Source: Synechococcus sp. UW140 (GTDB lineage Bacteria > Cyanobacteriota > Cyanobacteriia > PCC-6307 > Cyanobiaceae). From it: 64,000 nucleotides of DNA. Shown here one piece after another: positions 2,779 through 31,904 of the stretch (positions within the stretch are counted from its first letter, which is position 1; each line of letters starts with the position of its first letter). The translations under genes and the position numbers were made by a program. The stretch spans positions 148 to 64,147 of the forward strand of contig CAMCQR010000002.1 of NCBI GenBank assembly GCA_945877115.1, in the 5' to 3' direction. The notes under the pieces were generated by a model, which did not search any database, was not told where the DNA came from, and saw nothing but the letters and a program-made list of their open reading frames with translations.

Positions 2779-4094
2779 AGATCCTCTTTTTTGCCCCCTC
2801 GGCTTACCTCCTTGGTGGAGTTCAGGACTGGCTAGGTGACCTTGTGCCTGGAATCAGGCGAAAGGGTCATGATGTCACAGTTGCCGTACCGGATGGACTT
2901 TATCATCGCTTTGAAGCCTATAGACAGGCTTATCCTGAACTTGCCTGTATTAGTCTGCGAAATCCAACGGGTAGCCAGGAAGGCCGAGTTGAGTCGATTA
3001 TCCATCAGATTCTTTCTATACAGCCCGACTTGATTGTTGGGGTCAATATTGCCTCTGTTTATCCAGCAGTGGCTAGACTGCGTCGCCGTCGGGATTGGCT
3101 CGGGAAATTAATTGTTACACTACATGCCATTGAGGCTGATTATTTTGAAGATCTACGTAAATTTCGCACGATTGTTGACGCCGTTGTTGTCACGAACAAG
3201 CTTACGGCCGCTTTGGTTGCTCAAGAGTCTCTGATGCCGCCAGAAAGAATTTTATATGCTCCTTATGGTGTAAGATTTCCCGCTTACCATCACTCTAGAC
3301 AAGTAACTGATGATGTTTTGCGACTTGCTTGGGTGGGCCGTTTAGAGCAGGCTCAAAAGCGTGTTCATGATCTTGTCGCAATTCTTGGCAGTCTGGATAG
3401 CCTGTTTTTCCCCTATTGCTTATCTCTTGCTGGCGATGGCCCCGACGCGATAAGCATTAAGGAGCGGCTTCAGCCATGGATTAGTTCGGGAAGAGTGTGT
3501 TGGCTAGGGCGCCTTGATCGGCATGACCTACAGTTTCAAGTCTATGATCGAAATGATGTGTTATTGATTACTTCTTGCTGGGAGACGGGTCCGATTGTGG
3601 CATGGGAGGCAATGGCTGCCGGTTTGGTGGTTGTGAGCAGTCGCTATGTGGGCTCGGTAGCTGAAGAGGCCCTTAAAGATGGGCAAACGGCTTTGTTGTT
3701 TCCTGTCGGTGATAGCGAAGCTGCTGCTGCGGCTATTGCCAGACTTCGCGATCCTAACCTGCGATCTTTTTTGGCTAACTCTGCTTTTGAGATGGTTCGC
3801 CGCCGCTACTCCGAGTCCGCTTCCTTGACGTCTTGGCTTGAAGCCTTAGGCACTTGCATGGACCTCCCCCGTCTGCCCGTTGGCGTCGCCGAATCGACTC
3901 GATTGGCTGTTACCACCCCAAGTGGCAGGTTTGATCATTGGCTTGGTGTTGCAAGGGCTGAGCAGCTTCGACGTCTTCTTGGCCTCAATTTTCGCCATCT
4001 TTCAGCGGGCAGCGAATGGCCCCATTCAATGAATGGATCCTCCGACAATGGCCATCTGCTCGCCAAGGCCACTCGGCTTGAAACCGATGCGTGA
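2775..4094 (+). CDS. Glycosyltransferase family 4
   Basis: WVGRLEQAQKRVHDL and TSCWETGPIVAWEAMAAG motifs; ATGA overlap with the upstream gene. Confidence 0.85.
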   Translation: MKILFFAPSAYLLGGVQDWLGDLVPGIRRKGHDVTVAVPDGLYHRFEAYRQAYPELACISLRNPTGSQEGRVESIIHQILSIQPDLIVGVNIASVYPAVARLRRRRDWLGKLIVTLHAIEADYFEDLRKFRTIVDAVVVTNKLTAALVAQESLMPPERILYAPYGVRFPAYHHSRQVTDDVLRLAWVGRLEQAQKRVHDLVAILGSLDSLFFPYCLSLAGDGPDAISIKERLQPWISSGRVCWLGRLDRHDLQFQVYDRNDVLLITSCWETGPIVAWEAMAAGLVVVSSRYVGSVAEEALKDGQTALLFPVGDSEAAAAAIARLRDPNLRSFLANSAFEMVRRRYSESASLTSWLEALGTCMDLPRLPVGVAESTRLAVTTPSGRFDHWLGVARAEQLRRLLGLNFRHLSAGSEWPHSMNGSSDNGHLLAKATRLETDA

Positions 4095-5094
4095 GCAACT
4101 TGGTGTCTGGTTGAAGGACCGCTGGCGCTACGAGAGGGCCCTGCGCAGCCCATCCCCTGGGTATCTTTCTCTGTCCAATCGCTTTGAGAGCCTGGAAAGA
4201 GCCCCGGATGGTACTGGTTTCTCCTGCCGTTGGACCTTTACTTCCAAGTTGCATGCCCCCGGGATTCAACCCCATCTTGGCCAGCGGTTGATACGTCGTT
4301 GCCTTGAGAATGCCCCGATCAGGTCTATTCCGTCCCGACCAGTTTCCCCAGCTCCCCCTGATATCAGCGTTTTGATTGGGCATCGTGGTCGTGAGAGACT
4401 GCCCCTGCTGTTGGCGACCTTGGATAGCCTGGCGGCCCAGCAGGATGTCCACCTTGAGTGTCTTGTGATCGAGCAATCGGCCGTCTCTGAGATCGTTAAC
4501 GATTTGCCTGACTGGGTCCGCCATGTGTTGGCCCCATTGGCTGAGCCTTCAGCCCCGTACAACAGATCCCAGACTTTCAATGTCGGCGCTCGCGAGGCCC
4601 AGGGTGGAACCTTGTTGTTACATGACAACGACATGCTTGTTCCAGCTGGTTATTGCCGTCGCATTCTCGAACGCCGAGCAAGGGGTTATGAAGTGATAAA
4701 CCCTAAGCGTTATATCTTTTATCTTACTGAGGAACATAGTAAAGCGGTTCAGTGTGGCCTCGTAGGGTATGATTTTTCCTCTCCTGATTATATTATTCAG
4801 AACCTGGAAGCCGGTGGTAGTATGGCCATAAGTGCTGGGGCATTTGAGGACATCGGAGGAATGGACGAAGGCTTTGTGGGTTGGGGCGGGGAAGACAATG
4901 AATTCTGGGATCGCTGCCTTACGCTTCCCACTTGGATTTGGGGTTATGAGCCAATTGTCCATCTCTGGCACCGTAGTCAACCGCTCAAGGATGACCTAGA
5001 TAACCCAAACATTTCGCGATGTAGAGAAATTATGCAACGCTCCCCTATGGAGAGAATAGAAGCTCTTAAGCTATTGAGGGGGACTCTGCATTGA
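4087..5094 (+). CDS. GT2 / galactosyltransferase-like (Glyco_transf_7C) protein
   Basis: LHDNDML DxD motif and GGMDEGFVGWGGEDNEF motif. The ATG at 4087 (overlapping the upstream stop region) is preferred to the track start at 4033. Confidence 0.8.
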   Translation: MREQLGVWLKDRWRYERALRSPSPGYLSLSNRFESLERAPDGTGFSCRWTFTSKLHAPGIQPHLGQRLIRRCLENAPIRSIPSRPVSPAPPDISVLIGHRGRERLPLLLATLDSLAAQQDVHLECLVIEQSAVSEIVNDLPDWVRHVLAPLAEPSAPYNRSQTFNVGAREAQGGTLLLHDNDMLVPAGYCRRILERRARGYEVINPKRYIFYLTEEHSKAVQCGLVGYDFSSPDYIIQNLEAGGSMAISAGAFEDIGGMDEGFVGWGGEDNEFWDRCLTLPTWIWGYEPIVHLWHRSQPLKDDLDNPNISRCREIMQRSPMERIEALKLLRGTLH

Positions 5095-6101
5095 GTAGGC
5101 AACTTGGCCGTGACGCACCCCTAGTGAGTACTGTAATACCCGTATATAACCGGGCTCTGCTTCTGCTCGATTCAGTTGATAGTGTTATAGCCCAGACCTA
5201 CAGACCCATAGAAATTATTCTCGTTGATGATGGCTCAACTGATGACACTCCTGACGTTCTGGCTGATTTGGTTCATCGCTGGCCCGATCTGCTCAGGGTG
5301 GTTCGTCAGGCCAACGCCGGTCCTGGTCCAGCCCGACAAAGGGGCCTTGACTCAGCAAGAGGGGATTTTGTCCAGTTTCTTGACAGTGATGATTTACTCC
5401 TACCTGAAAAGTTCAGTAACCAGGTGGCCGCGCTTCTCGCAAGCCCAAAGGCTCAAATTTGCTATGGCCGTAGTTATGAGGAGGATCATTCTAAGCGTCC
5501 GGTTTGTCGCGAAGGGCCTATGCGCCAAACCGGTCGTGTCCACCGACACCTTTTTCCGATGTTGCTTGTAGAACGTTGGTGGACTACAAGCAGCCCCCTT
5601 TATCGGCGAAGTCTGCTGCAGAGCATTGGCCCTTGGCGAGCTTGGCTCAATGAGGAGGACTGGGAATATGACGCGCGTGCTGGTGCAACAGGGGCCTGCC
5701 TTTGCTGGGTGGACAAAGATGTTTCCGTTAGGCGTATCCATCTAGCTTCCGAACATCTCAGTACGGGGGGCACGGTGGATCCCCTCAAACTGCTCCACCG
5801 CGCAGCCGCCCGCCAATCTATTTTTCTATCGGCGATGGCGGCCGGTATGGATACAAATAGACCAGAAATGGCTCATTTTGCCCGCTCTGCATTTCTACTA
5901 AGTCGCCAATGTGGCTTGGCTGGTTTAGAGACCGCCTCCAGGGAACTTTTTGCATTGGCCAGGCGGGCATCGACTCCTTTGCGTCGATTTGGTCCCGACT
6001 ATCTGCTTTATGGCATCCTTGGGAGTCTTTTGGGTTGGTCTAGTACGGCACGACTAATCCTTTCGGTTTACAGATTGTTGCTACGACGGCGGGGGAGCTG
6101 A
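5091..6101 (+). CDS. Glycosyltransferase family 2
   Basis: LVSTVIPVYNR, VDDGSTDDT, QFLDSDDLL and EDWEY motifs. Confidence 0.9.
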   Translation: MSRQLGRDAPLVSTVIPVYNRALLLLDSVDSVIAQTYRPIEIILVDDGSTDDTPDVLADLVHRWPDLLRVVRQANAGPGPARQRGLDSARGDFVQFLDSDDLLLPEKFSNQVAALLASPKAQICYGRSYEEDHSKRPVCREGPMRQTGRVHRHLFPMLLVERWWTTSSPLYRRSLLQSIGPWRAWLNEEDWEYDARAGATGACLCWVDKDVSVRRIHLASEHLSTGGTVDPLKLLHRAAARQSIFLSAMAAGMDTNRPEMAHFARSAFLLSRQCGLAGLETASRELFALARRASTPLRRFGPDYLLYGILGSLLGWSSTARLILSVYRLLLRRRGS

Positions 6102-20794: not shown

Positions 20795-21711
20795 ACCAGC
20801 TCATTGCGCTGCTTTTGTTCTTTTCAGGCTTCCTGTCCTGGTTGTTGCTTTGGTGGCTCGTTCCGGTGCTGAGACAGCGCCTTCCTGATATCCCCAATGA
20901 CCGCAGTTCCCATCGTTCACCGACACCTCGCGGGGGCGGTCTGGCCTTTGTTGTGGTGGCTATTTCGCTGACTCCGCTCTTCGCTCAGGGGGCCAGTGCC
21001 TGGATTCCAGTTATTTGCGCACCCCTGGCTCTGGTTGGAGTTCTGGACGACCGTTTTAACCTGCCAGCATTATGGCGGTATCTGGCTCAACTCTGCACAG
21101 CACTGGCCCTCATGGCTGTAGCCACTTTGTCTTTGCCACTTTGGAGCTTGCCATTGGTCCTACTGGCGGTGACAGCAATCATCAATTTTTTCAATTTTAT
21201 GGATGGCCTTGATGGCCTTGTAGCGAGTTGTGGTGCTGTGTTGATGATGGCCTCAGGGCAATGGGTTCTTGCCGGTGCACTTTTGGGATTTTTGCTCTGG
21301 AATTGGAGTCCTGCCCGAATTTTCATGGGCGATGTTGGTAGCACATACTTGGGAGCAGTTTTTGCAGGGCTTGTTCTACAGAGGCCCCAACCACTTCAAT
21401 CCCTACTGCTTTTGTTGGTTGCCACACCCCTTTTGGCTGATGCATTGATTTGTGTCCTGAGGCGTTGGTACGCTGGCCAGCGGATTTTTCAAGCCCATCG
21501 CTTGCATCTTTACCAACGTCTTCACAGTGCTGGTTGGCCCCATGCCGCCGTAACCGTGCTGTATTTACTTCAGATTACTTTGTTGGCCTTGGGTTTCTGC
21601 TTGGGTCTCCCTCTGCCAATCATGTTTGCTGAGGTTTTGATGGTGTTGATGCTTGGGTGGTGGCTTGATCAAAATCAAGCATCCGCATTTTCAGGTGAAA
21701 ATGAAAAGTAG
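20791..21711 (+). CDS. MraY/WecA-family (WbpL-like) undecaprenyl-phosphate N-acetylhexosamine-1-phosphate transferase
   Basis: DIPNDRSSHRSPTPRGGGLA, LDDR, NFFNFMDGLDG, IFMGDVGS and AHRLHLYQRL motifs. Confidence 0.9.
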   Translation: MNQLIALLLFFSGFLSWLLLWWLVPVLRQRLPDIPNDRSSHRSPTPRGGGLAFVVVAISLTPLFAQGASAWIPVICAPLALVGVLDDRFNLPALWRYLAQLCTALALMAVATLSLPLWSLPLVLLAVTAIINFFNFMDGLDGLVASCGAVLMMASGQWVLAGALLGFLLWNWSPARIFMGDVGSTYLGAVFAGLVLQRPQPLQSLLLLLVATPLLADALICVLRRWYAGQRIFQAHRLHLYQRLHSAGWPHAAVTVLYLLQITLLALGFCLGLPLPIMFAEVLMVLMLGWWLDQNQASAFSGENEK

Positions 21712-21890
21712 GCATGCTACTATTTTCAGGAATGGTTTTGACGTTTCAGCCCCTTGCCTACGGTCATCCATTAGTGTGTTTTACATATTCACCCTCCAAT
21801 AAATGCATAAATTCCATTAAACGACCCAAAACAGCGTAGCCAAAGAACAAGACTTTAGTTTAATTTGCAAAGTCAGCGTGTAGACTGCCC

Positions 21891-23864
21891 ATGACTTTCA
21901 ACTTTCTCCCACCACCAGCCAAATCGCCAGAATTTCCCAAGGTCTCTTTCCTGTCTGGATCACCTTTATCTGAAACTCGTTTGCTCAGGTCTTCTAAATC
22001 CTTGGTCCTGCTGCGGCGTTTAGTGCTGCTTGGTTTCGACAGCCTTTTAATTGTGATTGCCTTTCTAGGCTCACTGCTTTTAGTCAGGTCGCCCGATACT
22101 CTCTTTTTTGCCACATCCAAACTACTCCCTTTAGGTGTGGTGAGTGGCCTTGCCGTCCTACTTTTTTCGGGCTGGTATCGAGGCTTGACCCGTTACGCCG
22201 GGAGTCATTCTCTTTATGGGTTGATTCCCAGAACTGGGACCATGGTCATTTTGATGATGGTATTCAGTTCTTTATTGTCCATCAATCTACCCCTTGGTTC
22301 CTGGTTTCTGTACTGGACTTTCTTTACTGGAGGCGCTATAGCTACTAGAATTATAATGCGTGACTTGTTAATACAGCAACTATCACGTCAAAATTTTATC
22401 CGATCTCCAGAACCCGAAGCCAATGTCACCATGATTTACGGTGCCGGTTCATCTGGAATGGCACTACTCACTGCTCTTCGTAATGATCCAAGATTTCGCA
22501 TTATTGGGTTTTTGGACGATGATTCTATTCTGCATGGTCGAACTCTCCAAAATCTACGCATTGATAATCCATCCCGTTTACCGGTGCTCATTGAGCGCCA
22601 TAAAGTGTGTAAGATTCTATTGGCCTTGCCTTCCGTATCCCGAGCTCGCAAACGTTTATTGGTCGATCAGTTGACCCGTTCTGGTCTTGAGGTTCTTTCG
22701 ATTCCCTCCCTATCTCAGTTGGCTGGTAAGGAGAGAATTGTCAGTGATCTTCAAACAGTCTCTATTGAAGATTTGTTAGGACGTGAACCTTCTAATCCAG
22801 ACCCTATGCTTCTTGAAGCAAGTGTATTGGGAAAAGTGGTTTTAGTTACCGGAGCAGGGGGGTCTATCGGTAGTGAGCTTTGTCGTCAAATCATTTCACT
22901 GGGAGCAGCTAAAATACTATTATTAGAGCAGAATGAATTTGCTCTTTATTCCATAGACAATGAACTGCGTTCCAAAAATAATACAATACCTGTCTACCCA
23001 ATTCTTGGGGACGTTAGTAATTCTAAGCCTTTAACCGCTCTTTGCATTAAGCACGGCGTTCAAACCTTATTTCATGCAGCAGCTTATAAGCATGTTCCTA
23101 TGGTTGAGTCGAATATATGTTCCGGAGTATCAAATAATATACGCTCGACTCGATCAGTCATTGATGCCGTTCTTGCAGCCCGTGTTGAAAGATTGACACT
23201 TATTTCTACTGATAAGGCAGTTAGGCCTACTAATGCCATGGGTGCAAGTAAGCGCATCTGTGAAATGATGATTCAATCTGCAGCTACTTCTTGCGGACCT
23301 AACGGCCCCGTCATGACGATGGTTAGATTTGGTAACGTGCTCGGATCTTCTGGATCAGTCATTCCACTATTTCATAAACAGATTTCCCTAGGAGGTCCGG
23401 TCACCGTTACCCATCCTGCGGTTACACGCTATTTTATGACAATCCCGGAGGCTGTTCAATTGGTTTTACAAGCAACTGGCATGGCCGAAGGAGGAGACTT
23501 GTTTCTCCTTGACATGGGCGAGCCAGTTAGAATTGCCGATCTTGCCCGTCAAATGATCGAATTATCTGGCCTTCGTTTACGAGATGAAAAAAACTCAGAC
23601 GGAGATATAGAAATTGAATATACTGGTTTGCGACCAGGTGAAAAATTATATGAAGAACTTTTAATCGATACCCAAGATCAGCCTACTCAGCATCCTTTAA
23701 TTCGACGCGCTTGTGAGCTTAACCCACCTGACAATCATCTTTTACCACTTTTAAAAGAGCTTGAAGATGCCCTAACTCGTTGGGATGAAAAAGATACAAG
23801 TGATTTGCTCGTAAAGCTGGTGCCAGAGTATCATCGTGAAAATCATGTCCACGAATCTAACTAA
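21891..23864 (+). CDS. capD: CapD/WbpM/PglF-family membrane-bound UDP-GlcNAc 4,6-dehydratase
   Basis: N-terminal TMs, then IYGAG, VTGAGGSIGSEL, HAAAYKHVP, STDKAVRPTNAMGASK, VRFGNVLGSSGSV, RYFMTIPEA and GLRPGEKLYEEL. Confidence 0.93.
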   Translation: MTFNFLPPPAKSPEFPKVSFLSGSPLSETRLLRSSKSLVLLRRLVLLGFDSLLIVIAFLGSLLLVRSPDTLFFATSKLLPLGVVSGLAVLLFSGWYRGLTRYAGSHSLYGLIPRTGTMVILMMVFSSLLSINLPLGSWFLYWTFFTGGAIATRIIMRDLLIQQLSRQNFIRSPEPEANVTMIYGAGSSGMALLTALRNDPRFRIIGFLDDDSILHGRTLQNLRIDNPSRLPVLIERHKVCKILLALPSVSRARKRLLVDQLTRSGLEVLSIPSLSQLAGKERIVSDLQTVSIEDLLGREPSNPDPMLLEASVLGKVVLVTGAGGSIGSELCRQIISLGAAKILLLEQNEFALYSIDNELRSKNNTIPVYPILGDVSNSKPLTALCIKHGVQTLFHAAAYKHVPMVESNICSGVSNNIRSTRSVIDAVLAARVERLTLISTDKAVRPTNAMGASKRICEMMIQSAATSCGPNGPVMTMVRFGNVLGSSGSVIPLFHKQISLGGPVTVTHPAVTRYFMTIPEAVQLVLQATGMAEGGDLFLLDMGEPVRIADLARQMIELSGLRLRDEKNSDGDIEIEYTGLRPGEKLYEELLIDTQDQPTQHPLIRRACELNPPDNHLLPLLKELEDALTRWDEKDTSDLLVKLVPEYHRENHVHESN

Positions 23865-23865
23865 A

Positions 23866-24807
23866 ATGGATCTTTCCTCAATTCCAATCAAATTAAAATC
23901 ATTCTGTTTGAGATATGTTCCTCCATTAACAGCGCGTAATTTGTGGCTGTTCATAGCAAGTGCTGTCGCAATCCAAAATATCGTTGTATTTTATACAAGT
24001 CAAAATGAATCAATGGCCGTATTTTCCGTCTTAATTTGGGGCGGTGCGGTCATCTGCATGGAAGATCTCATTGAAAAAGTGCACCCTCAGCCCAATCCCG
24101 CAATAGCTATCCTGGCCTCAATAATATTGTTATTTGTCTTATTAAGAACGTCGCTCATATTACATGCCGATGGTGTTCTATTCCTTTTAGCACCATTAGC
24201 TGCTGTTGCGCTGGTTCTATTAATCGAAAAACCACATTCTATATTTAAATTTCGAGATTCGCTTTTATGCATGCTTTTATTTCCTGCTAATGCGTTGCTA
24301 AATCGTGTCATACCTGAATATCCTATGAGCTTGCTCACGGCACGACTGTCTGCCTTTTGGTTGTCTATTTTAGGTTTAGATCCATTGGTTAATGGTCGAG
24401 AAGTACTTTTAGAAGGCGGAGGTGTCACTGTTTTGGGCGCATGCAACGGTCTTGATATGATTTCTCAAGTAATGTGTATATCATTTATTTTCTTACTTGC
24501 TTTTCGTTTAAGGTCGTTAACTTCACGAATTTTAATAACTTTGCTTGCCCCCTTAGTTGGATTGTTTTCAAACACACTTCGCATAGCCTTGCTCACAATA
24601 TTTAGTGCAAATGGTTCGGGTAAGGGCTATGGATTTTGGTTTGACTTCTTTCATAAGGATACAGGATCTTTAATTTTTTCAGGTCTAGCAGTTTTTATTT
24701 TTGGAACTATTTACATGAGATTTCTTGAGCACGAGCTTGGACCTGAATCTCTTATCGTTGAATCAAATCAAGATTCAACTCCTAATCAAGAAACAGGATC
24801 TTTATGA
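23866..24807 (+). CDS. crtA: Cyanoexosortase A-like (exosortase/archaeosortase family) membrane transpeptidase
   Basis: Multi-TM protein with the Cys-Arg-His triad: VTVLGACNGL, SNTLRIALL and FDFFHKDTGSLIFS. The ATG at 23866 follows the capD stop. 'crtA' here means cyanoexosortase A, not a carotenoid gene. Confidence 0.8.
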   Translation: MDLSSIPIKLKSFCLRYVPPLTARNLWLFIASAVAIQNIVVFYTSQNESMAVFSVLIWGGAVICMEDLIEKVHPQPNPAIAILASIILLFVLLRTSLILHADGVLFLLAPLAAVALVLLIEKPHSIFKFRDSLLCMLLFPANALLNRVIPEYPMSLLTARLSAFWLSILGLDPLVNGREVLLEGGGVTVLGACNGLDMISQVMCISFIFLLAFRLRSLTSRILITLLAPLVGLFSNTLRIALLTIFSANGSGKGYGFWFDFFHKDTGSLIFSGLAVFIFGTIYMRFLEHELGPESLIVESNQDSTPNQETGSL

Positions 24808-25457
24808 ATCTCAAAAGTTTTTACGGAATCTTGGCTTTGCTTTCAACAGTAGCGGCAACTCAGTCAATGATTTTTCCGCGTTGGCCAGATGCCTCAAAAA
24901 TTTCTACTGAAAAAATAGATCAATTCATGGCAAATATTTCTTCTAATGGGCACACTGTGAAACCTTCTACTACGCTAGGCAATCACTCAGATTATAACGT
25001 GTCCCACACATCTATAATTAGCTCAAAGATTAACTCTAATTCAGATCTATTATTTACTAACGTGCAAGTACGTGATCGAAAAGATCTTAGTGTTTCCCAT
25101 ATTACCGAGTCTATTAAATCACTTCAATTGACGAAGTCTGCCATTATGAGTAAGCAACCTCCTTATTTCCTATCTGATACACAACCATCGGGAACAACCT
25201 ATCAAACCTGCTTTGTTCAAGGTAATCCTTGGCCGTTTGGTTTGGCCGTCAATCAAGATACGCTAACTTTAGCCGTGGATCAAGCAAAGTCGCTCGAAAC
25301 TAATCTGGCAATTAAACGCTTTCTCGGTCTCAGTCCAAGTCGTAATTATCAATGCATTTTAATTACCCTTAAAACAACTTTGCCTATCAAAGAAGGCAAC
25401 CAAATGTGGCTTGACGTGCTTCATCAATTTCAAAATACATTTAACAATAAAAAGTAA
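24804..25457 (+). CDS. Cyanoexosortase-associated protein (EpsI-like partner)
   Basis: ATGA-coupled to the exosortase; N-terminal anchor. C-terminal TCFVQG...FLG...RNYQCILITL...W pattern resembles cyanoexosortase A-associated proteins, from memory. Confidence 0.6.
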   Translation: MNLKSFYGILALLSTVAATQSMIFPRWPDASKISTEKIDQFMANISSNGHTVKPSTTLGNHSDYNVSHTSIISSKINSNSDLLFTNVQVRDRKDLSVSHITESIKSLQLTKSAIMSKQPPYFLSDTQPSGTTYQTCFVQGNPWPFGLAVNQDTLTLAVDQAKSLETNLAIKRFLGLSPSRNYQCILITLKTTLPIKEGNQMWLDVLHQFQNTFNNKK

Positions 25458-25461
25458 ATTT

Positions 25462-26007
25462 ATGGCTTTTTGGAATAAACTACAAAAATTATCAAGCAAC
25501 TTGGATAAGCCTGTGCAGACACAGGATCCTCTATATACACAGCCTTTGATTTATAGTTGGATACTAAATAATCAATTGGCTATAGGACCAATGCCAAGAA
25601 GAACATTCCAATGGAATCAGCTAGAAGATGTAGGATTCAAGACCAGATTCAGCTGCTGCTATCCTCTGGAGAATGTATTTGCACCTATTCCGGCTGATTG
25701 GTTTTCTGCTAATGTTCCTTTGCCTGACCATAGAAAGCAGGAGGCCCTTGATATTGATAGACTAAGGTTAGCCTTGAATACTGCTGAAGAGTTAGTGATT
25801 AATTCAGCACCTGTATACTTACATTGCTTTGCTGGACAAGAAAGATCATCCTTATTGGCTGTTGGGTTAACAGCAAGGATTAAAAAGATTGATGTTTTTT
25901 CAGCATTAGAATGGGTAAGACGCTGTCATCCAATATCTGCACCAAGTTATGAATACCTTGAAATTTTGGAAAATATTTTAAAAACTGATTCAAGATTTCT
26001 AAATTAA
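25462..26007 (+). CDS. Dual-specificity protein phosphatase (Cys-based PTP)
   Basis: P-loop VYLHCFAGQERS (HCx5R), upstream PLPDH general-acid Asp and SALEWVRRCHP helix. Confidence 0.88.
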   Translation: MAFWNKLQKLSSNLDKPVQTQDPLYTQPLIYSWILNNQLAIGPMPRRTFQWNQLEDVGFKTRFSCCYPLENVFAPIPADWFSANVPLPDHRKQEALDIDRLRLALNTAEELVINSAPVYLHCFAGQERSSLLAVGLTARIKKIDVFSALEWVRRCHPISAPSYEYLEILENILKTDSRFLN

Positions 26008-26011
26008 GTTT

Positions 26012-28558
26012 TTAATTATCTTTATTGCGACGGAAAATTTTAGATATCCAATTATTTTTTTCTACTGACTTCTTGATACGATTAGATGTTGGCAATCCAT
26101 AGTTTGTAGGTTTTTCCGTTGATAGCTTATCTTTTTTGGCTTCAGTGGTACCAAGCCCTGCATCAATATAGCGCCCTATACCTGAATTGGTATAACGGTC
26201 TGAGTTGGGTGATGCTGACTTAGTCATGTACGAGTCACGATATCGCTTGATGTAATTGCTTATACCATATGATTTTGAACTTTGCTTGCCGTAACTATCT
26301 GTATATGCATAAGCATAGTGATAATAATATCCATATTCATAGCCGTAATCGTTGAGGCGGCTTGGGAAGTTGACTTGGTTGCAAATGATCCCCAAAAGAT
26401 CCACGCCAGTCGCTTTAATGCGACGTGCTGCTTGAGGTGCGAGATTGCGATTGACTTTTCCGAGGCCAACCAGAAAGAGTATGCCATCTAATTTTTCACC
26501 CAATAGAATTGGGTCAGATAGCATTAAACAGGGTGGTGCATCAAATAGAATAATGTCGTAATCAGACATTGCCCTTAACTCATTAATTACTTCGGCGCAC
26601 CTAGTGGAATTAAGAAGTTTGGCCGGGTCTGGTGGCTTAGGGCCGGCCGGCAGCACATCAAGATTATCTTGTAGGCTGATGATCAGTGAACTGATAGGAA
26701 TACTAGAGTCTGAAAGAACAGACGAAAAGCCTTCTCCTGAAGCCATTCCAAGATATCGTGCTTGCATCGGCAGACGCATGTCAGCATCTACAACGAGAAC
26801 TTTAAGGCCTAGGTCTGCTAATGTTCGTGCAAAAATACTTACTGATGTTGATTTGCCTTCACCTTGAGTTGAGGATGTAACTCCTACAAGTCTGATGTTA
26901 TGATCAGCCCTCAGTAGGCGAAAGGTTGTAAAGAGACTGCGTAAAGATTCTTTAATTGCAAATCTTTCGCTAGCAGACATTTTGGAAATACTTGTAGCAA
27001 TATCAACTCCCGGTTCTAGGGGTAGATAGGGTATCAAGCCTAGGACAGGAAGTTGTAATTCTTTTTCGGCTTCCATAGGAGTATGGAAAACGTTATCTGT
27101 TTTTTCACGAAGTATTGCAGCTCCAACACCAGAGAGCAACCCAAGCATTATGGCCTGTAAAAGATTCTTTTTGATGTCAGGCTGAACTGGAGTGTCTCCA
27201 AAGTTGGGGGGGGAAATTACTTGCCAAGGAGTGATAAAGCGTGATCGTTCAAGCTTATAATTTTCTTTAGCTCTTAGATAGGATGCATAGTTTTCTTTTG
27301 CGCTAGAAAGCTTTGAGACTATTTTTTCATATTCTCTTAGCATTTTAGGACTGTTTTTAAAATTTCGATTATATAACATAATTTGTCTATTTACTTCGTC
27401 TTGCTGAGATTTGTTGGCAAATAATTTGACTCGAATAGAGTCGGATTTTTGCGACTCTACCACTGGGATTAGGGCATTTTTCCTGGCTAAAATAGATTGT
27501 ACGATAGGGGAATCTTCTTTGTAGGTTGCCCTGGCTTGGGCAAGCTGTAATTCAAACTCGTTGAGCTGATCTGATGGCGTTTTAACATCATTTATATTTT
27601 CGGCTATTTTTTCTTGTCTTCCAGGAATCAGTGCGCTATTGTTGCCAAGTTGATTGATCGCTGATGGGGCTCCACTTGGAGTAAAGGTTAGGTAACCTGA
27701 CTCGACAGATTTGAGTTGACTTTCGAGTTGGGCTTGCTCAACTTGTAAGCTTTGCCACTCATTAGAAAGGGAATTGCGACGATTTTCTATCGTGGAGACA
27801 ACGGCAATTGGATCCACCATTTTATTGGCTTCACGGAAGCGGCTTAGTTGGGTTTCCAGTGAAGCAACTTCACGTAAAATTGCCGGCGCTTGTTGGTCAA
27901 GATATTTGACGCCCGAATCAAGGGTTGCTTGGCGCTGGGAGAGAGAAAAGGCTACATAATCGTTCGCTAATGCGGCAAGTACGGCTTTACCTTTGGTTGG
28001 ATCTGGCCAACGCAAATCCACTGTAATCACATTTGGAGCACCAGGAATAGTTTCCATATTGAGATTTTTGGCAATCTCTTCGCTCGATAGTCCAAGTCTG
28101 GTGGCAACGGGTGATATTAGATAGGGGCTGCGGAGAAGTACGATGAGACTGGGTACATCTATTCTCTGTTTATAACGTGCAATGGCTTCTAACTTCCCAC
28201 CGTCTCCAGCTACAGGCGAGCCGCCTTCGTCAAATGGGCTGCTGATTTGAAGCTGAAAAGCTCCTTGGTAAACGGGACTGAAAATCCTTTCGCGAATTGT
28301 GTTGACAGCAAGGGCACCTGATACAAGTGCAGATGTGAAAAGGAAAAGGGTTTGTCGGCGCTTGATGGTGCGCAGAATATTTTGAATTCCACCTTCTCTG
28401 CCATCGCCAGCCAAAGGCGACATACCTTGTTGGAGTTGTTCAGTGGGGCCGCCTTCCAGGGATCGGGTACCCATTGGCACCAGTCCATCTAAAGTAGGGT
28501 CGCCCCCAGGCGCTGGAAGCAGGGGGGCACCGGCTCGGGTCACGGCATTTCGTTTCAA
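26012..28558 (-). CDS. wzc: Wzc / GumC-family polysaccharide co-polymerase tyrosine kinase
   Basis: Two TMs flank a coiled-coil periplasmic domain. Walker A TQGEGKST, VDADMR, Walker B ILFDAPP and Tyr cluster DYGYEYGYYYHYAYAY are present. Confidence 0.92.
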   Translation of the reverse strand: MKRNAVTRAGAPLLPAPGGDPTLDGLVPMGTRSLEGGPTEQLQQGMSPLAGDGREGGIQNILRTIKRRQTLFLFTSALVSGALAVNTIRERIFSPVYQGAFQLQISSPFDEGGSPVAGDGGKLEAIARYKQRIDVPSLIVLLRSPYLISPVATRLGLSSEEIAKNLNMETIPGAPNVITVDLRWPDPTKGKAVLAALANDYVAFSLSQRQATLDSGVKYLDQQAPAILREVASLETQLSRFREANKMVDPIAVVSTIENRRNSLSNEWQSLQVEQAQLESQLKSVESGYLTFTPSGAPSAINQLGNNSALIPGRQEKIAENINDVKTPSDQLNEFELQLAQARATYKEDSPIVQSILARKNALIPVVESQKSDSIRVKLFANKSQQDEVNRQIMLYNRNFKNSPKMLREYEKIVSKLSSAKENYASYLRAKENYKLERSRFITPWQVISPPNFGDTPVQPDIKKNLLQAIMLGLLSGVGAAILREKTDNVFHTPMEAEKELQLPVLGLIPYLPLEPGVDIATSISKMSASERFAIKESLRSLFTTFRLLRADHNIRLVGVTSSTQGEGKSTSVSIFARTLADLGLKVLVVDADMRLPMQARYLGMASGEGFSSVLSDSSIPISSLIISLQDNLDVLPAGPKPPDPAKLLNSTRCAEVINELRAMSDYDIILFDAPPCLMLSDPILLGEKLDGILFLVGLGKVNRNLAPQAARRIKATGVDLLGIICNQVNFPSRLNDYGYEYGYYYHYAYAYTDSYGKQSSKSYGISNYIKRYRDSYMTKSASPNSDRYTNSGIGRYIDAGLGTTEAKKDKLSTEKPTNYGLPTSNRIKKSVEKNNWISKIFRRNKDN

Positions 28559-28669
28559 ATCCTACCGACTCTAGGCCCAACTCGGGACCAAAGTGCTGCG
28601 TTGGTGATCGCTTTCGCTTTCGGCCTCAGACTCTCCAGTTGTTATCGGTTAAGGTTCCCCAACGAACCT

Positions 28670-29926
28670 ATGGTTTTTGTGAGGAACTCTAGTCTAGACA
28701 ACCAGTCTCAAGTCCCCTTGCCTGGCCTGCCGGCACCCCAGGCACATTGCTTGGGGCGCTGGGTGGCCTTATCTGCGACCGTTTCCCTAGTGTGCTCGCC
28801 TGGGGGTCTTATTGCGGCTCCCCTGACAGGCACTCCTGCAGGGGCAGATACCGGCATGCCAGCGTTGCGTATTCAGAACATTCATACGCCACCACCCAAT
28901 TCATCTGGGCCTGGATATCTGGAACGCAGGCCAGCTCCATTGCCGATGCCGGCTCCTGAGCGATCGCTTTCTCTCCCCGAGCTTTATAGCGATCTCTACA
29001 CGCTTGGTCCGGGTGACACACTTCAGCTCAATTTTTTGGATCCTGAAGCTAAGTCCCTCAATGGCACATTTGGTATTTTAGCTGATGGCACAACCACATT
29101 GCCATTGGTTGGTTCTGTCCAATTGATTGGTCTCACCATCGGTCAAGCAACCCGTTGGTTGACGTCGCTTTATTCCAAGCAGCTAGTCCGTCCTCAGTTA
29201 ACTCTAACTCTCACGGCTCCCAGGCCCGTAAAAGTGACGATAGTGGGAGAAGTGTCCCGTCCCGGCCTCTATCCTCTTGGGTCTATTTCTAATCCTGTAG
29301 AGGCCATTCAAACGGCAGGGGGTGTTACTTTAAATGCAGATGTTCGTAATATACGTCTGCGACGACTGGCCGGTTCGGCTGGCGCTCAAAAAGAGACAAC
29401 GCTCAATCTTGCAGACCTGTTTGCCAATGGTAATCAACTGCAAAATCCGGTGTTGTTTGATGGAGACACTATTATCGTTTCCCGTGCCATCCAGCCGGTA
29501 CCAGAGGAGGTCTTAGCGATTGGCCAAACGAATTTGGCGCCACTGTCCATCAGTGTGACTGTGATCGGGGAGGTGAAGTCGCCTGGGACGGTTTCCTTGC
29601 CTTCCAATACTCCACTCATCGAAGCTCTTTTCCGATCGGGAGGCTTGATTAGGCGTCGCGCCCAGGCCAACAATATTGAATTAGTTCGTTTTAATCGAAA
29701 CGGCACTACGACCCGTCAGATGTTTGCCTATAAAGAAGATTTACCTGTCTCTAATCTCACGAATCCACCCTTACGCAATGGTGACACTATTATTGTTCGC
29801 AGTAACCTCTATGGCAAGGCCTTGAATTTGTTCAATGATCTGGCCGAGCCCCTCGGCGCTATCAATAGTATCTTCAGCTATGCTAATTATTGGAATTACT
29901 GGAATAATAACAATAATAATAACTAG
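28670..29926 (+). CDS. wza: Wza/OPX polysaccharide export protein with SLBB domains
   Basis: Poly_export YTLGPGDTLQL...DGTTTLPLVG; repeated SLBB motifs (V.GEV.RPG, L.DGDTIIV, LRNGDTIIV). Start is 28670 (ATG) or 28601 (TTG). Confidence 0.9.
   Translation: MVFVRNSSLDNQSQVPLPGLPAPQAHCLGRWVALSATVSLVCSPGGLIAAPLTGTPAGADTGMPALRIQNIHTPPPNSSGPGYLERRPAPLPMPAPERSLSLPELYSDLYTLGPGDTLQLNFLDPEAKSLNGTFGILADGTTTLPLVGSVQLIGLTIGQATRWLTSLYSKQLVRPQLTLTLTAPRPVKVTIVGEVSRPGLYPLGSISNPVEAIQTAGGVTLNADVRNIRLRRLAGSAGAQKETTLNLADLFANGNQLQNPVLFDGDTIIVSRAIQPVPEEVLAIGQTNLAPLSISVTVIGEVKSPGTVSLPSNTPLIEALFRSGGLIRRRAQANNIELVRFNRNGTTTRQMFAYKEDLPVSNLTNPPLRNGDTIIVRSNLYGKALNLFNDLAEPLGAINSIFSYANYWNYWNNNNNNN
29885..29923 (+). repeat. 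Coding simple repeats: (AATTAYTGG)x2 plus (AAY)x7, encoding NYWNYWNNNNNNN
   Basis: Read directly: AATTATTGG AATTACTGG AATAATAACAATAATAATAAC TAG. Confidence 0.85.
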
Positions 29927-29946
29927 CGGTAACAATATTTGCTGAC

Positions 29947-31218
29947 ATGATTTTTGTCCTTTCCATCTTCTTAATTGCCATGAGTCATTTTAGCCACCCT
30001 CTTAATACCCGAGCCGTGGCTTGGGCCCTTCTCTCCCAGTCCCTCTGGCTCCCAGTTGTAGGCATTGATCTACACGACCGCTGGCAAGCGGAGTTCCTCC
30101 GTTCTCGGCCCCTCGCCCTCCCCCAAGCCGAGTTGGCGGCTTCCCTGCCCCCGGCTCCTTTGGTGAATCCGGTCGAAAGGTCTCCCCTTTCCCGGGAAGC
30201 TCAATCGAATACTTCAGCCTCTGGAGTCCTGCTGGGCGCCTCTTCTCCGGCAGCCCATGCCCAGGTAGGACACCTGCTTGACCCAGCTGAACAGGTTGCT
30301 CCGGTCGGCCAGTATGTGATGACCCAGCGACCGTTCAAGTTCGCTACGCCCACTGCCTCCCCCCATGCAAGTGGCACCCCGTCCCCAGTCGTGGCTCCCC
30401 TTGCCAGCGCCTCCCGCTACGACCTGTTGCAGCGTTCGTTCACGCCTGCGGAGCTCCTAGGGGGGACCTTGACATTGAAGGATCTGCAGGCTGCCCCAAC
30501 CCCGTCGGTCGCCCTTTCTGAACGGGCCCGTCTTGCCCGTTCTTCCGATCCGTTGGCTCCCCTGCCCCAGGCCTGGCGTGAACCGATGCGTCGCGCCCTC
30601 AATGCAATCAATATCCCTTCGCCCCTGAAGCCCTCCGCCCAGCTGGAGGCCGCCCGCGTGGTCCACGTGCCCTCCATGAAGGTCTCCCGTGCGACGGCAG
30701 TCCCCTTGGTGTTGCAGTCCGATGGCAGCGTTGATCTGCTGTCAAAACCGGAGGATCCGGCAGTCCTGGAGGCTATCCGCGGTTGGAGTGGTCGCCAGGA
30801 TCTCCCCGCTTCGGGTCGTCTGGCGCCCGCGATCGTGCATGTTGAACCTCTCAAGGAGTTGCCACCGCTGAGTTCGATTTCGGTTAAGACCCAGGCTAAG
30901 CCCCATTCTTCAGGCCCCATGGGGAAGGCCTCGCCCGCTTCGCCGGCCATGGGTTCGCCAGACCCAGCGGTTGCGCCCACTGCAGAGGCTTCGGTCCCGG
31001 CTCGTGTACCCGTTGTTGCTCCGGTCTCCGAACTCCGTGGCGAGCCCCCTGCGCCCCAACCGCCCGTGGCGGCGGAAGCCCCGAGTCCCGCCCCGCCCTC
31101 CGCAGCCCCGGCTCCGTCGGCTCCTGTGGCTCCAGCCCCCGAGGTGCCTCCGGCGCCCGCGGCCAGTGCCCCTCAGGCCTCATCCCCGGCCCCTTCCTCG
31201 CCCCAGCCTGCTTCGTGA
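29947..31218 (+). CDS. Hypothetical protein with N-terminal hydrophobic segment and long Pro/Ala-rich C-terminal tail
   Basis: 423-aa ORF (alternative ATG at MSHFSH) with a globular-looking middle and an APAPSAPVAPAP-type tail; TGATG-coupled to the next gene. Confidence 0.7.
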   Translation: MIFVLSIFLIAMSHFSHPLNTRAVAWALLSQSLWLPVVGIDLHDRWQAEFLRSRPLALPQAELAASLPPAPLVNPVERSPLSREAQSNTSASGVLLGASSPAAHAQVGHLLDPAEQVAPVGQYVMTQRPFKFATPTASPHASGTPSPVVAPLASASRYDLLQRSFTPAELLGGTLTLKDLQAAPTPSVALSERARLARSSDPLAPLPQAWREPMRRALNAINIPSPLKPSAQLEAARVVHVPSMKVSRATAVPLVLQSDGSVDLLSKPEDPAVLEAIRGWSGRQDLPASGRLAPAIVHVEPLKELPPLSSISVKTQAKPHSSGPMGKASPASPAMGSPDPAVAPTAEASVPARVPVVAPVSELRGEPPAPQPPVAAEAPSPAPPSAAPAPSAPVAPAPEVPPAPAASAPQASSPAPSSPQPAS

Positions 31219-31904
31219 TGTTCCCCTCTCTTGGTGCCAGGTTGACCATGGGCGTTTCTGTTGCCCTGGCGGCAGCCACCCCATCGGTTTTCGCCCAGGG
31301 CCTCGTACCTCTGGCACCTTGGCATCAGGTGGCTCCTCAGGCCCCTGCAGCCTCCTGGATCCCCTTTGCTGATCCACGAGTCAATCCCCTGGCCTGGCGT
31401 CCGGTATCCCGTTACGACGCAGTGCCTCCACCCCAACAACCTGAAGCGGCTTTAGAGACAACCGTTCCCGTGGTCGACCCTGCGACGCAGCCCGGGCCGA
31501 TCTTTGGCATTGGAACAGGTATCCACTCCTTTGCTGGGGATCGCACCAGTCCCGTGGTGACCGGGCGCCTTGGCTATGCCTTCGGTGAGGGGTTCGGGGT
31601 TTCCTTACGGCCCACTTACATCTTCTTGAACAGGGACCTGCAGGGGGTTGATAACAGCGATGGAGCTTTTCAGATGCCCCTCACCCTTGATTTGTTCCCC
31701 CGTGCGCTCTTCTCGCCCTACATCGGAGCTGGCCTGGCCACCAATACCGATACTAGCCACACGACCGATGCCATGCTCACGGGGGGCATGGACCTAAATC
31801 TCGTGCGCCATCTATCCCTTGGGTTGAATATTAATTATATCTTCCAGCCCGCACAAAACGATAGTGACTGGGAGGCCATGGCTTTGCTTTATTTTCGTTT
31901 TTAG
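31218..31904 (+). CDS. Small outer-membrane beta-barrel protein (OmpA/OmpW-like, about 8 strands)
   Basis: Signal peptide ending VFAQ, Pro-rich spacer, alternating beta-strands (GRLGYAF, FSPYIGAGLA, LGLNINYIF) and C-terminal LLYFRF (terminal Phe, BAM-type signal). Confidence 0.75.
   Translation: MFPSLGARLTMGVSVALAAATPSVFAQGLVPLAPWHQVAPQAPAASWIPFADPRVNPLAWRPVSRYDAVPPPQQPEAALETTVPVVDPATQPGPIFGIGTGIHSFAGDRTSPVVTGRLGYAFGEGFGVSLRPTYIFLNRDLQGVDNSDGAFQMPLTLDLFPRALFSPYIGAGLATNTDTSHTTDAMLTGGMDLNLVRHLSLGLNINYIFQPAQNDSDWEAMALLYFRF

Follow-up and report, generated by a model that had tools for sequence, protein, structure and literature searches.

Background

Capsule and exopolysaccharide (EPS) export is controlled above all by the cycling of bacterial tyrosine kinases (BY-kinases). 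Reviews of these kinases name two classes of counteracting phosphatases, namely low-molecular-weight protein tyrosine phosphatases (LMW-PTP) and, in some Gram-positive bacteria, enzymes of the PHP family (PMC9800525), and a survey of genome contexts points to COG0394 (LMW-PTP) as the phosphatase linked to BY-kinases (PMC4007543). In cyanobacteria, the LMW-PTP designated 'Wzb' was found to be ubiquitous in a phylum-wide survey and to be the least correlated with other EPS genes (PMC4594306); in picocyanobacteria, the corresponding gene, ptpA, forms the 3' boundary of the phycobilisome rod region (PMC8995045).

Here we describe a phosphatase gene that lies next to a gene for a Wzc-type BY-kinase in a 64,000-nucleotide stretch of the genome of Synechococcus sp. 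UW140 (contig CAMCQR010000002.1, positions 148 to 64,147; hereafter, the window). The product is predicted to be a cysteine phosphatase with the dual-specificity phosphatase (DSP) fold. We propose, with a probability of about 0.58, that this enzyme is cytoplasmic, is dedicated to the Wza/Wzc exporter and resets the tyrosine cluster of Wzc, thereby filling the role of Wzb in Escherichia coli. In public databases, proteins of this family are annotated as 'dual specificity protein phosphatase family protein' or 'hypothetical', with nothing further, and full-text literature searches detected no publication linking a DSP-type phosphatase to a BY-kinase, Wzc, an exosortase or these loci.

Predicted fold and classification of the phosphatase

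The phosphatase, which is present in a single copy in the genome, contains the P-loop motif HCFAGQERS and, 33 residues ahead of Cys122, an LPDH loop with Asp89. This distance is close to the approximately 30 residues taken as the expected spacing and is the same as the Asp-to-Cys spacing in VHR-type DSPs. The LPDH loop along with His121, Cys122, Glu127, Arg128 and Ser129 are invariant in alignments of 10 and 28 homologues that extend down to 24% identity. In the HMMER alignment, the PLPD stretch of the phosphatase coincides with PIPD, the sequence of the acid loop in archaeal PTPs (TkPTP/ShufPTP), and Asp89 probably functions as the general acid.

The class assignment is weak from sequence alone, the score of the phosphatase against the DSPc profile (PF00782) being 20.5 bits, below the gathering threshold of 33.5 bits, and the matches to archaeal PTPs and small human DUSPs among the PDB sequences being similarly weak (E-values between 3e-4 and 1e-2). 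Many of its relatives have precomputed matches to PF00782, PF22784 or PF22785. The AlphaFold2 model built from the 28-sequence alignment (pLDDT 87.3, pTM 0.80) retrieved, in a Foldseek search, DSP-fold structures at a probability of 1.00 and with TM-scores of 0.7-0.82, including DUSP23/VHZ, DUSP7/14/16/18/19/22, SsoPTP, TkPTP and PTPMT1 (3rgq, 3rgo). By its predicted structure, the protein is a DSP-fold cysteine phosphatase with intact catalytic motifs; it belongs to a divergent subfamily of the DSP-like branch. There is no match to PF01451 (LMW-PTP) in the phosphatase, whose CX5R motif is internal, unlike the N-terminal motif of LMW-PTP, and no match to PF19567 (PHP, CpsB/CapC) in either the phosphatase or the genome. 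The first-pass annotation of the window had read the layout of a DSP, with an Asp preceding an internal HCx5R motif, rather than that of an LMW-PTP or PHP enzyme, and profile searches, alignment and Foldseek all agree with it on this point. Given that neither a signal peptide nor a transmembrane segment is present in the phosphatase, the protein can be expected to reside in the cytoplasm, on the same side of the membrane as the kinase domain of Wzc.

Conservation of the link with the polysaccharide export genes

To characterize the distribution of this gene, we searched 151 Cyanobiaceae genomes with the phosphatase, Wzc and Wza sequences, accepting as strong Wzc matches those with E < 1e-60. 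Of these genomes, 38 encode the phosphatase and 43 encode a strong Wzc; 37 encode both proteins, six encode Wzc alone, 107 encode neither, and one encodes the phosphatase alone, as a fragment at a 317-bp contig edge (Fisher p = 9e-28, uncorrected for phylogeny). The link is also apparent in gene adjacency: of the 39 copies of the phosphatase gene, 26 have wzc and 20 have wza no more than 1.6 kb away, and all but two (37/39) flank one or both of these genes. In the lineages other than that of the window, the most common immediate neighbors are wza orthologues. The genome G053, which carries two wzc loci, has a phosphatase gene of its own at each.

Five gene orders retain the link. In order A (DSP-> <-wzc wza->; 12 copies), found in the genus of the window and neighboring ones, the phosphatase gene converges with wzc; this arrangement is present in all 14 Cyanobium loci for which the 3' flank is available. 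Order B (<-DSP <-wzc wza->) accounts for five copies, including that of Prochlorococcus MIT 1223. Nine copies are divergent from wzc, of which eight show order C (<-wzc wza-> DSP->) and the ninth represents order D (<-wza <-DSP wzc->; a single copy). Finally, in order E (11 copies, six of these loci inspected closely), 18-75 nt separate wza from the phosphatase gene that follows it, and wzc is either on a different contig or at a distance of 32-56 kb. In order-E loci (L049, L051 and L052), the other neighbor of wza is a conserved, divergently transcribed gene for a protein of 459-486 aa without a Pfam match.

Thus, the linkage of the phosphatase gene to the Wza/Wzc export pair is conserved well beyond the genome of the window and is not due to chance, and its survival through five rearranged gene orders is the signature of a functional module. 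The two features by which a cognate phosphatase would be recognized, location in the same module and co-inheritance with the kinase and the exporter, were both observed; Wzc, the partner that the first-pass annotation had suggested from a single locus, is encoded in 37 of the 38 phosphatase-bearing genomes. The identities of the phosphatases and the Wzc proteins to their counterparts in the window are strongly correlated (r = 0.96, n=23), an observation that carries little weight since species distance alone may explain it.

In the window itself, the phosphatase and wzc genes are arranged tail-to-tail, the TAA codon of the former ending at position 26007 and the stop codon of the latter occupying positions 26012-26014 on the minus strand. 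No terminator-like site was found in a scan of positions 25400-27400, and no stable hairpin was predicted at the junction (fold z-score +0.62). These coordinates and the terminator scan corroborate the initial description of the HCFAGQERS phosphatase as ending 4 nt from wzc with no intervening terminator. Such an arrangement raises the possibility that the two genes are coupled at the RNA level, with overlapping 3' ends causing antisense or transcriptional interference on wzc through read-through of the phosphatase operon, or the reverse. The tightness of the junction in 17 of 18 convergent loci, where the gap ranges from -55 to +65 nt and is tight within the genus, is consistent with this possibility. 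The sequence of the spacer is not conserved, though, and other lineages have this gene in the same direction as wzc or wza, or with wza lying between it and wzc; the conserved partnership cannot, then, be founded on an antisense overlap. RNA-level coupling therefore seems an improbable explanation of the link, and the 3' overlap could at most provide a genus-specific extra layer of regulation.

The Wzc kinase and the proposed function of the phosphatase

Judging by family score and motifs, the gene next to the phosphatase encodes a genuine BY-kinase of the PCP-2a type. Its score with the TIGR01007 model is 114.6 bits (cut-off 108.05); the protein also matches the Wzc, EpsG and XrtA-associated kinase models along with AAA_31 and CbiA, and contains the Walker A (residues 562-571), A' (587-595) and B (669-676) motifs. 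Two hydrophobic segments (TM1, ~71-88, and TM2, ~466-483) bracket a periplasmic coiled region and are followed by the cytoplasmic kinase domain and a C-terminal tyrosine-rich cluster.

This tyrosine cluster is present in every Wzc copy that flanks a phosphatase gene. The Wzc paralogues that lack it, in G049 and G139:C7, have no phosphatase gene as a neighbor. These two proteins (L056 and L064, respectively) are 42% identical to the Wzc of the window, and no 20-residue segment of their C-terminal tails contains more than one Tyr; they could represent pseudokinase-like proteins or polysaccharide co-polymerases without the cluster.

Picocyanobacterial Wzc proteins extend for 30-90 residues past the tyrosine cluster, and in most of them the terminus is formed by basic residues and then W-[ILM]-(D/E/x), as in RRWLDG, ISWIDR or NNWISK. 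This tail was considered as a docking motif for the phosphatase and rejected: it is present in G039 and G063, which lack the phosphatase, and absent in L039 and L045, where the phosphatase gene is linked.

The function that we propose for the phosphatase includes three steps. Wzc would autophosphorylate the C-terminal tyrosine cluster (residues 737-756), upon which the oligomer would dissociate. The phosphatase would then attack the phosphotyrosines of Wzc, with Cys122 as the nucleophilic residue, Arg128 binding the phosphate and Asp89 serving as the general acid. The dephosphorylated Wzc would reassemble into a ring, and the cycling between these states would set polymerization and export. 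Phospho-Wzc, we infer, is the substrate of the phosphatase, and the core LMW-PTP, PtpA, is probably not the main partner of Wzc.

The canonical LMW-PTP and other considerations

Along with the unusual phosphatase class and its part in the control of polysaccharide export, the first-pass annotation had considered that a canonical wzb might be unavailable in this organism. The results bear out the DSP class and show a conserved linkage with Wza/Wzc; they do not support the last of these ideas. A profile search of the 185 contigs of the own assembly found no PF01451 gene. An LMW-PTP, in contrast, is encoded in 139 of the 151 Cyanobiaceae genomes, including all four members of the genus of the window, and so is a core gene. 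A complete genome from this genus (L011, G146:C1:1610000-1622000) has the LMW-PTP gene beside cpcBA-cpcEF, panC-cmk and purM. None of cpcE/F, panC-cmk and purM was found in the 185 contigs either, and the final matching gene of the flank is cut short at position 14, where contig C106 ends; the LMW-PTP gene thus lies in an assembly gap. Replacement of Wzb, as deduced from a missing LMW-PTP, was accordingly rejected.

Several observations weigh against the DSP-fold enzyme being the dedicated phosphatase of Wzc, beginning with the LMW-PTP, which is almost certainly present in the organism and whose Synechocystis orthologue, Slr0328, dephosphorylates Wzc in vitro (PMC6562117); hence the DSP-fold enzyme may be neither the sole Wzc phosphatase nor the principal one. 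PtpA is a serious rival partner. It could be the actual Wzc phosphatase, like the LMW-PTPs of Synechocystis and E. coli, leaving to the DSP-fold enzyme other phosphoproteins of the pathway, such as sugar dehydrogenases and initiating transferases phosphorylated by Wzc, or phosphoserine and phosphothreonine sites, a division of labor that the relaxed substrate range of BY-kinases (PMC4007543) and the six genomes with Wzc and no DSP-fold enzyme would accommodate. The distribution of the two phosphatases points the other way. PtpA is retained in about 100 genomes without Wzc and is distant from wzc in every genome inspected, never adjoining wzc or wza, which implies that it has other duties, whereas the DSP-fold enzyme tracks Wzc nearly one-to-one. 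On these grounds we consider it unlikely that PtpA is the true Wzc phosphatase.

The co-occurrence statistic, furthermore, takes no account of shared ancestry, and six of the 43 Wzc-bearing genomes lack the DSP-fold enzyme. Three of these, which belong to a single genus (g11), keep the gene cluster and a Wzc with the tyrosine cluster, with other genes filling the slot of the phosphatase gene, so Wzc can work without the DSP-fold enzyme. In L009 (G010:C7), at positions 2937-5900, this slot is occupied by genes for 297-aa and 373-aa proteins of unknown families; the DSP-fold enzyme is absent throughout the genomes of that genus.

In other cyanobacterial families, moreover, most of the homologues are encoded among housekeeping genes (holB, gcvT, dus), with no EPS genes nearby; the link with wzc and/or wza recurs in three of the 11 genomes that encode the phosphatase (L015, L017 and L018), with a convergent arrangement like that of the window in L015, and in non-photosynthetic members of the phylum the homologues are unlinked to wzc. 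The housekeeping settings are what one would expect of a general signaling phosphatase that came to lie beside wzc by chance. Incidental adjacency is nevertheless very hard to reconcile with 37 of 39 copies flanking wzc or wza across the five gene orders and with the near-perfect co-occurrence, and we regard it as highly improbable.

The DSP fold itself also leaves room for a different type of substrate. PTPMT1, laforin and SEX4, all of which have this fold, act on lipids and glucans, and the top structural matches of the phosphatase include PTPMT1. In the P-loop, an unusual, invariant Glu immediately precedes the Arg, and most members of the family have Ala in place of the canonical Gly. Together with the many sugar-modifying enzymes encoded at the locus, these features are compatible with activity on a non-protein substrate of the polysaccharide pathway, for example, a sugar residue that carries a phosphate or an intermediate linked to a lipid. 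The conserved neighbors of the phosphatase gene, however, are wza and wzc, whereas the glycosyltransferase and tailoring genes vary with gene order, and the protein is small and cytoplasmic, without a carbohydrate-binding module. A non-protein substrate accordingly appears rather unlikely. On the evidence of comparative genomics, the DSP-fold enzyme can be considered a strong candidate for the resetting of Wzc.

The broader proposition is that DSP-fold enzymes represent a third, previously unrecognized class of cognate BY-kinase phosphatases after LMW-PTP and PHP, dedicated to Wza/Wzc across Cyanobium, marine Synechococcus and some Prochlorococcus, with PtpA serving other substrates linked to the phycobilisome region; we give this proposition even odds. 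If valid, it would explain the weak correlation of the cyanobacterial 'Wzb' LMW-PTP with EPS genes (PMC4594306), and a third class that docks via a different surface would test the generality of the Wzc/Wzb recognition model. The phosphatase gene is a marker of the Wza/Wzc module in picocyanobacteria, which are abundant worldwide and in which surface polysaccharides affect aggregation, grazing, phage resistance and carbon export.

Genomic context of the phosphatase gene

The phosphatase gene belongs to a surface-polysaccharide cluster that spans 16.7-32 kb of the window (Table 1). The cluster starts with genes for a carbamoyltransferase, a family 2 glycosyltransferase (GT2), an unknown protein and a DUF218-like protein, in this order, followed by a WecA-like GT4 gene; in the 3' part, the genes that follow wza, for a Pro/Ala-rich protein and a small beta-barrel outer-membrane protein, are followed by era. 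The start codon of the phosphatase gene is located 4 nt past the stop codon of the upstream gene, and the same start (MSFWKK...) is found in relatives with 80% identity. Because the upstream genes overlap each other and the phosphatase ATG follows after only 4 nt, this gene is the final one of a capD-exosortase-hpsJ-like operon.

Table 1. Positions of the genes and sequence features discussed in the text, in coordinates of the window
Feature	Position	Strand	Remarks
CapD/PglF-like dehydratase	21891-23864		after the WecA-like GT4 gene
Cyanoexosortase-A-like exosortase	23836-24807	+	PF09721; TIGR03763 at 103.5 bits, under the cut-off of 150
217-aa protein	24804-25457	+	between the exosortase and phosphatase genes
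Predicted DSP-fold cysteine phosphatase	25462-26007	+	181-aa open reading frame
LPDH loop with putative general-acid Asp89	25720-25731	+	within LPDHR; Asp89, 25726-25728
P-loop HCFAGQERS	25822-25848	+	residues 121-129; Cys122, 25825-25827; Arg128, 25843-25845
Spacer GTTT	26008-26011		4 nt between the convergent stop codons; terminator-free
Wzc-type BY-kinase (PCP-2a)	26012-28558	-	848 aa; TIGR01007 above cut-off
NNWISKIF tail at the extreme C-terminus of Wzc	26033-26056	-	residues 835-842; part of the W-[ILM] motif
C-terminal tyrosine cluster of Wzc, DYGYEYGYYYHYAYAYTDSY	26291-26350	-	residues 737-756; 10 Tyr in 20; presumed substrate of the phosphatase
Wza-type outer-membrane polysaccharide export protein (OPX)	28601-29926	+	divergent from wzc
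Pro/Ala-rich 423-aa protein and small beta-barrel outer-membrane protein	29947-31904		downstream of wza

The exosortase was considered as a conserved partner of the phosphatase and rejected: an exosortase gene is located near the phosphatase gene in orders A and D only, with none nearby in orders B, C and E. The 217-aa protein encoded between these two genes has no Pfam or NCBIfam matches. A neighboring gene in this position in a relative (59% identity; L003, 7213-8004) encodes a protein that matches PF28006 (HpsJ), which suggests a possible relationship with loci of the hormogonium-polysaccharide (hps) type. The Wza protein contains a Poly_export domain and two SLBB domains, and also matches the EpsE and PEP-CTERM export models. 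The synteny of the genes for the Pro/Ala-rich and beta-barrel proteins is kept throughout the genus, and a homologue of the former is also found 3' of wza in L009 and L010.

The GC content of the block from capD to wzc (window positions 21000-30000) is 37-47%, compared to ~64% for the genome, and that of the syntenic blocks in relatives (L001, L003, L004, L032 and L039-L046) is 7-22 points below that of their own right flanks. The proteins encoded in this block are 64-84% identical among relatives, against 93-94% for the flanking carbamoyltransferase and Era. The block looks like a hypervariable surface-polysaccharide locus whose position on the chromosome, immediately upstream of era, is constant. 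A scan with a single protein recovered close Cyanobium relatives only; the closest public loci belong to metagenome-assembled genomes of freshwater Cyanobium from Lake Mendota, Lac Pavin and similar sites.

Comparison with known phosphatases

The best structural and sequence matches of the phosphatase, DUSP23/VHZ (2img, 4erc), SsoPTP (2i6i) and TkPTP (5z5a), share with it the single-domain DSP fold of ~150 aa, the HCx5R(S/T) motif and the upstream acid loop. The identity to these proteins is 14-23%; the picocyanobacterial family differs from them by the invariant Glu before the P-loop Arg, and its genomic context, a bacterial Wza/Wzc exporter, has no counterpart among them.

A precedent for the replacement of the phosphatase class is provided by CpsB/CapC/YwqE, the cognate BY-kinase phosphatases of Gram-positive bacteria, which, like the picocyanobacterial enzyme, are not LMW-PTP (PMC9800525); these proteins, however, are metal-dependent, PHP-fold enzymes without a catalytic cysteine. 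PtpA and Slr0328 are cyanobacterial tyrosine phosphatases, the latter active on Wzc in vitro (PMC6562117), but PtpA is a core gene product that is encoded in genomes with or without Wzc, its gene bordering the phycobilisome rod region (PMC8995045) and never adjoining wzc or wza.

The closest functional parallel is E. coli Wzb (LMW-PTP, PF01451), which, similarly to the enzyme described here, is a small, cytoplasmic, cysteine-based phosphatase encoded within a Wza/Wzc module and presumed to act on the tyrosine cluster of Wzc. The order of wza and wzb in E. coli is the same as that of wza and the phosphatase gene in many picocyanobacteria, where the latter directly follows wza. The two enzymes differ in fold and in the layout of the catalytic residues: in LMW-PTP, the CX5R motif is N-terminal and the Asp belongs to a C-terminal DPYY loop, whereas in the picocyanobacterial phosphatase the CX5R motif is internal (residues 122-128) and the Asp is located upstream of it. 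What appears to be new in these loci is the logic of the Wza/Wzb/Wzc system implemented with a different phosphatase fold.

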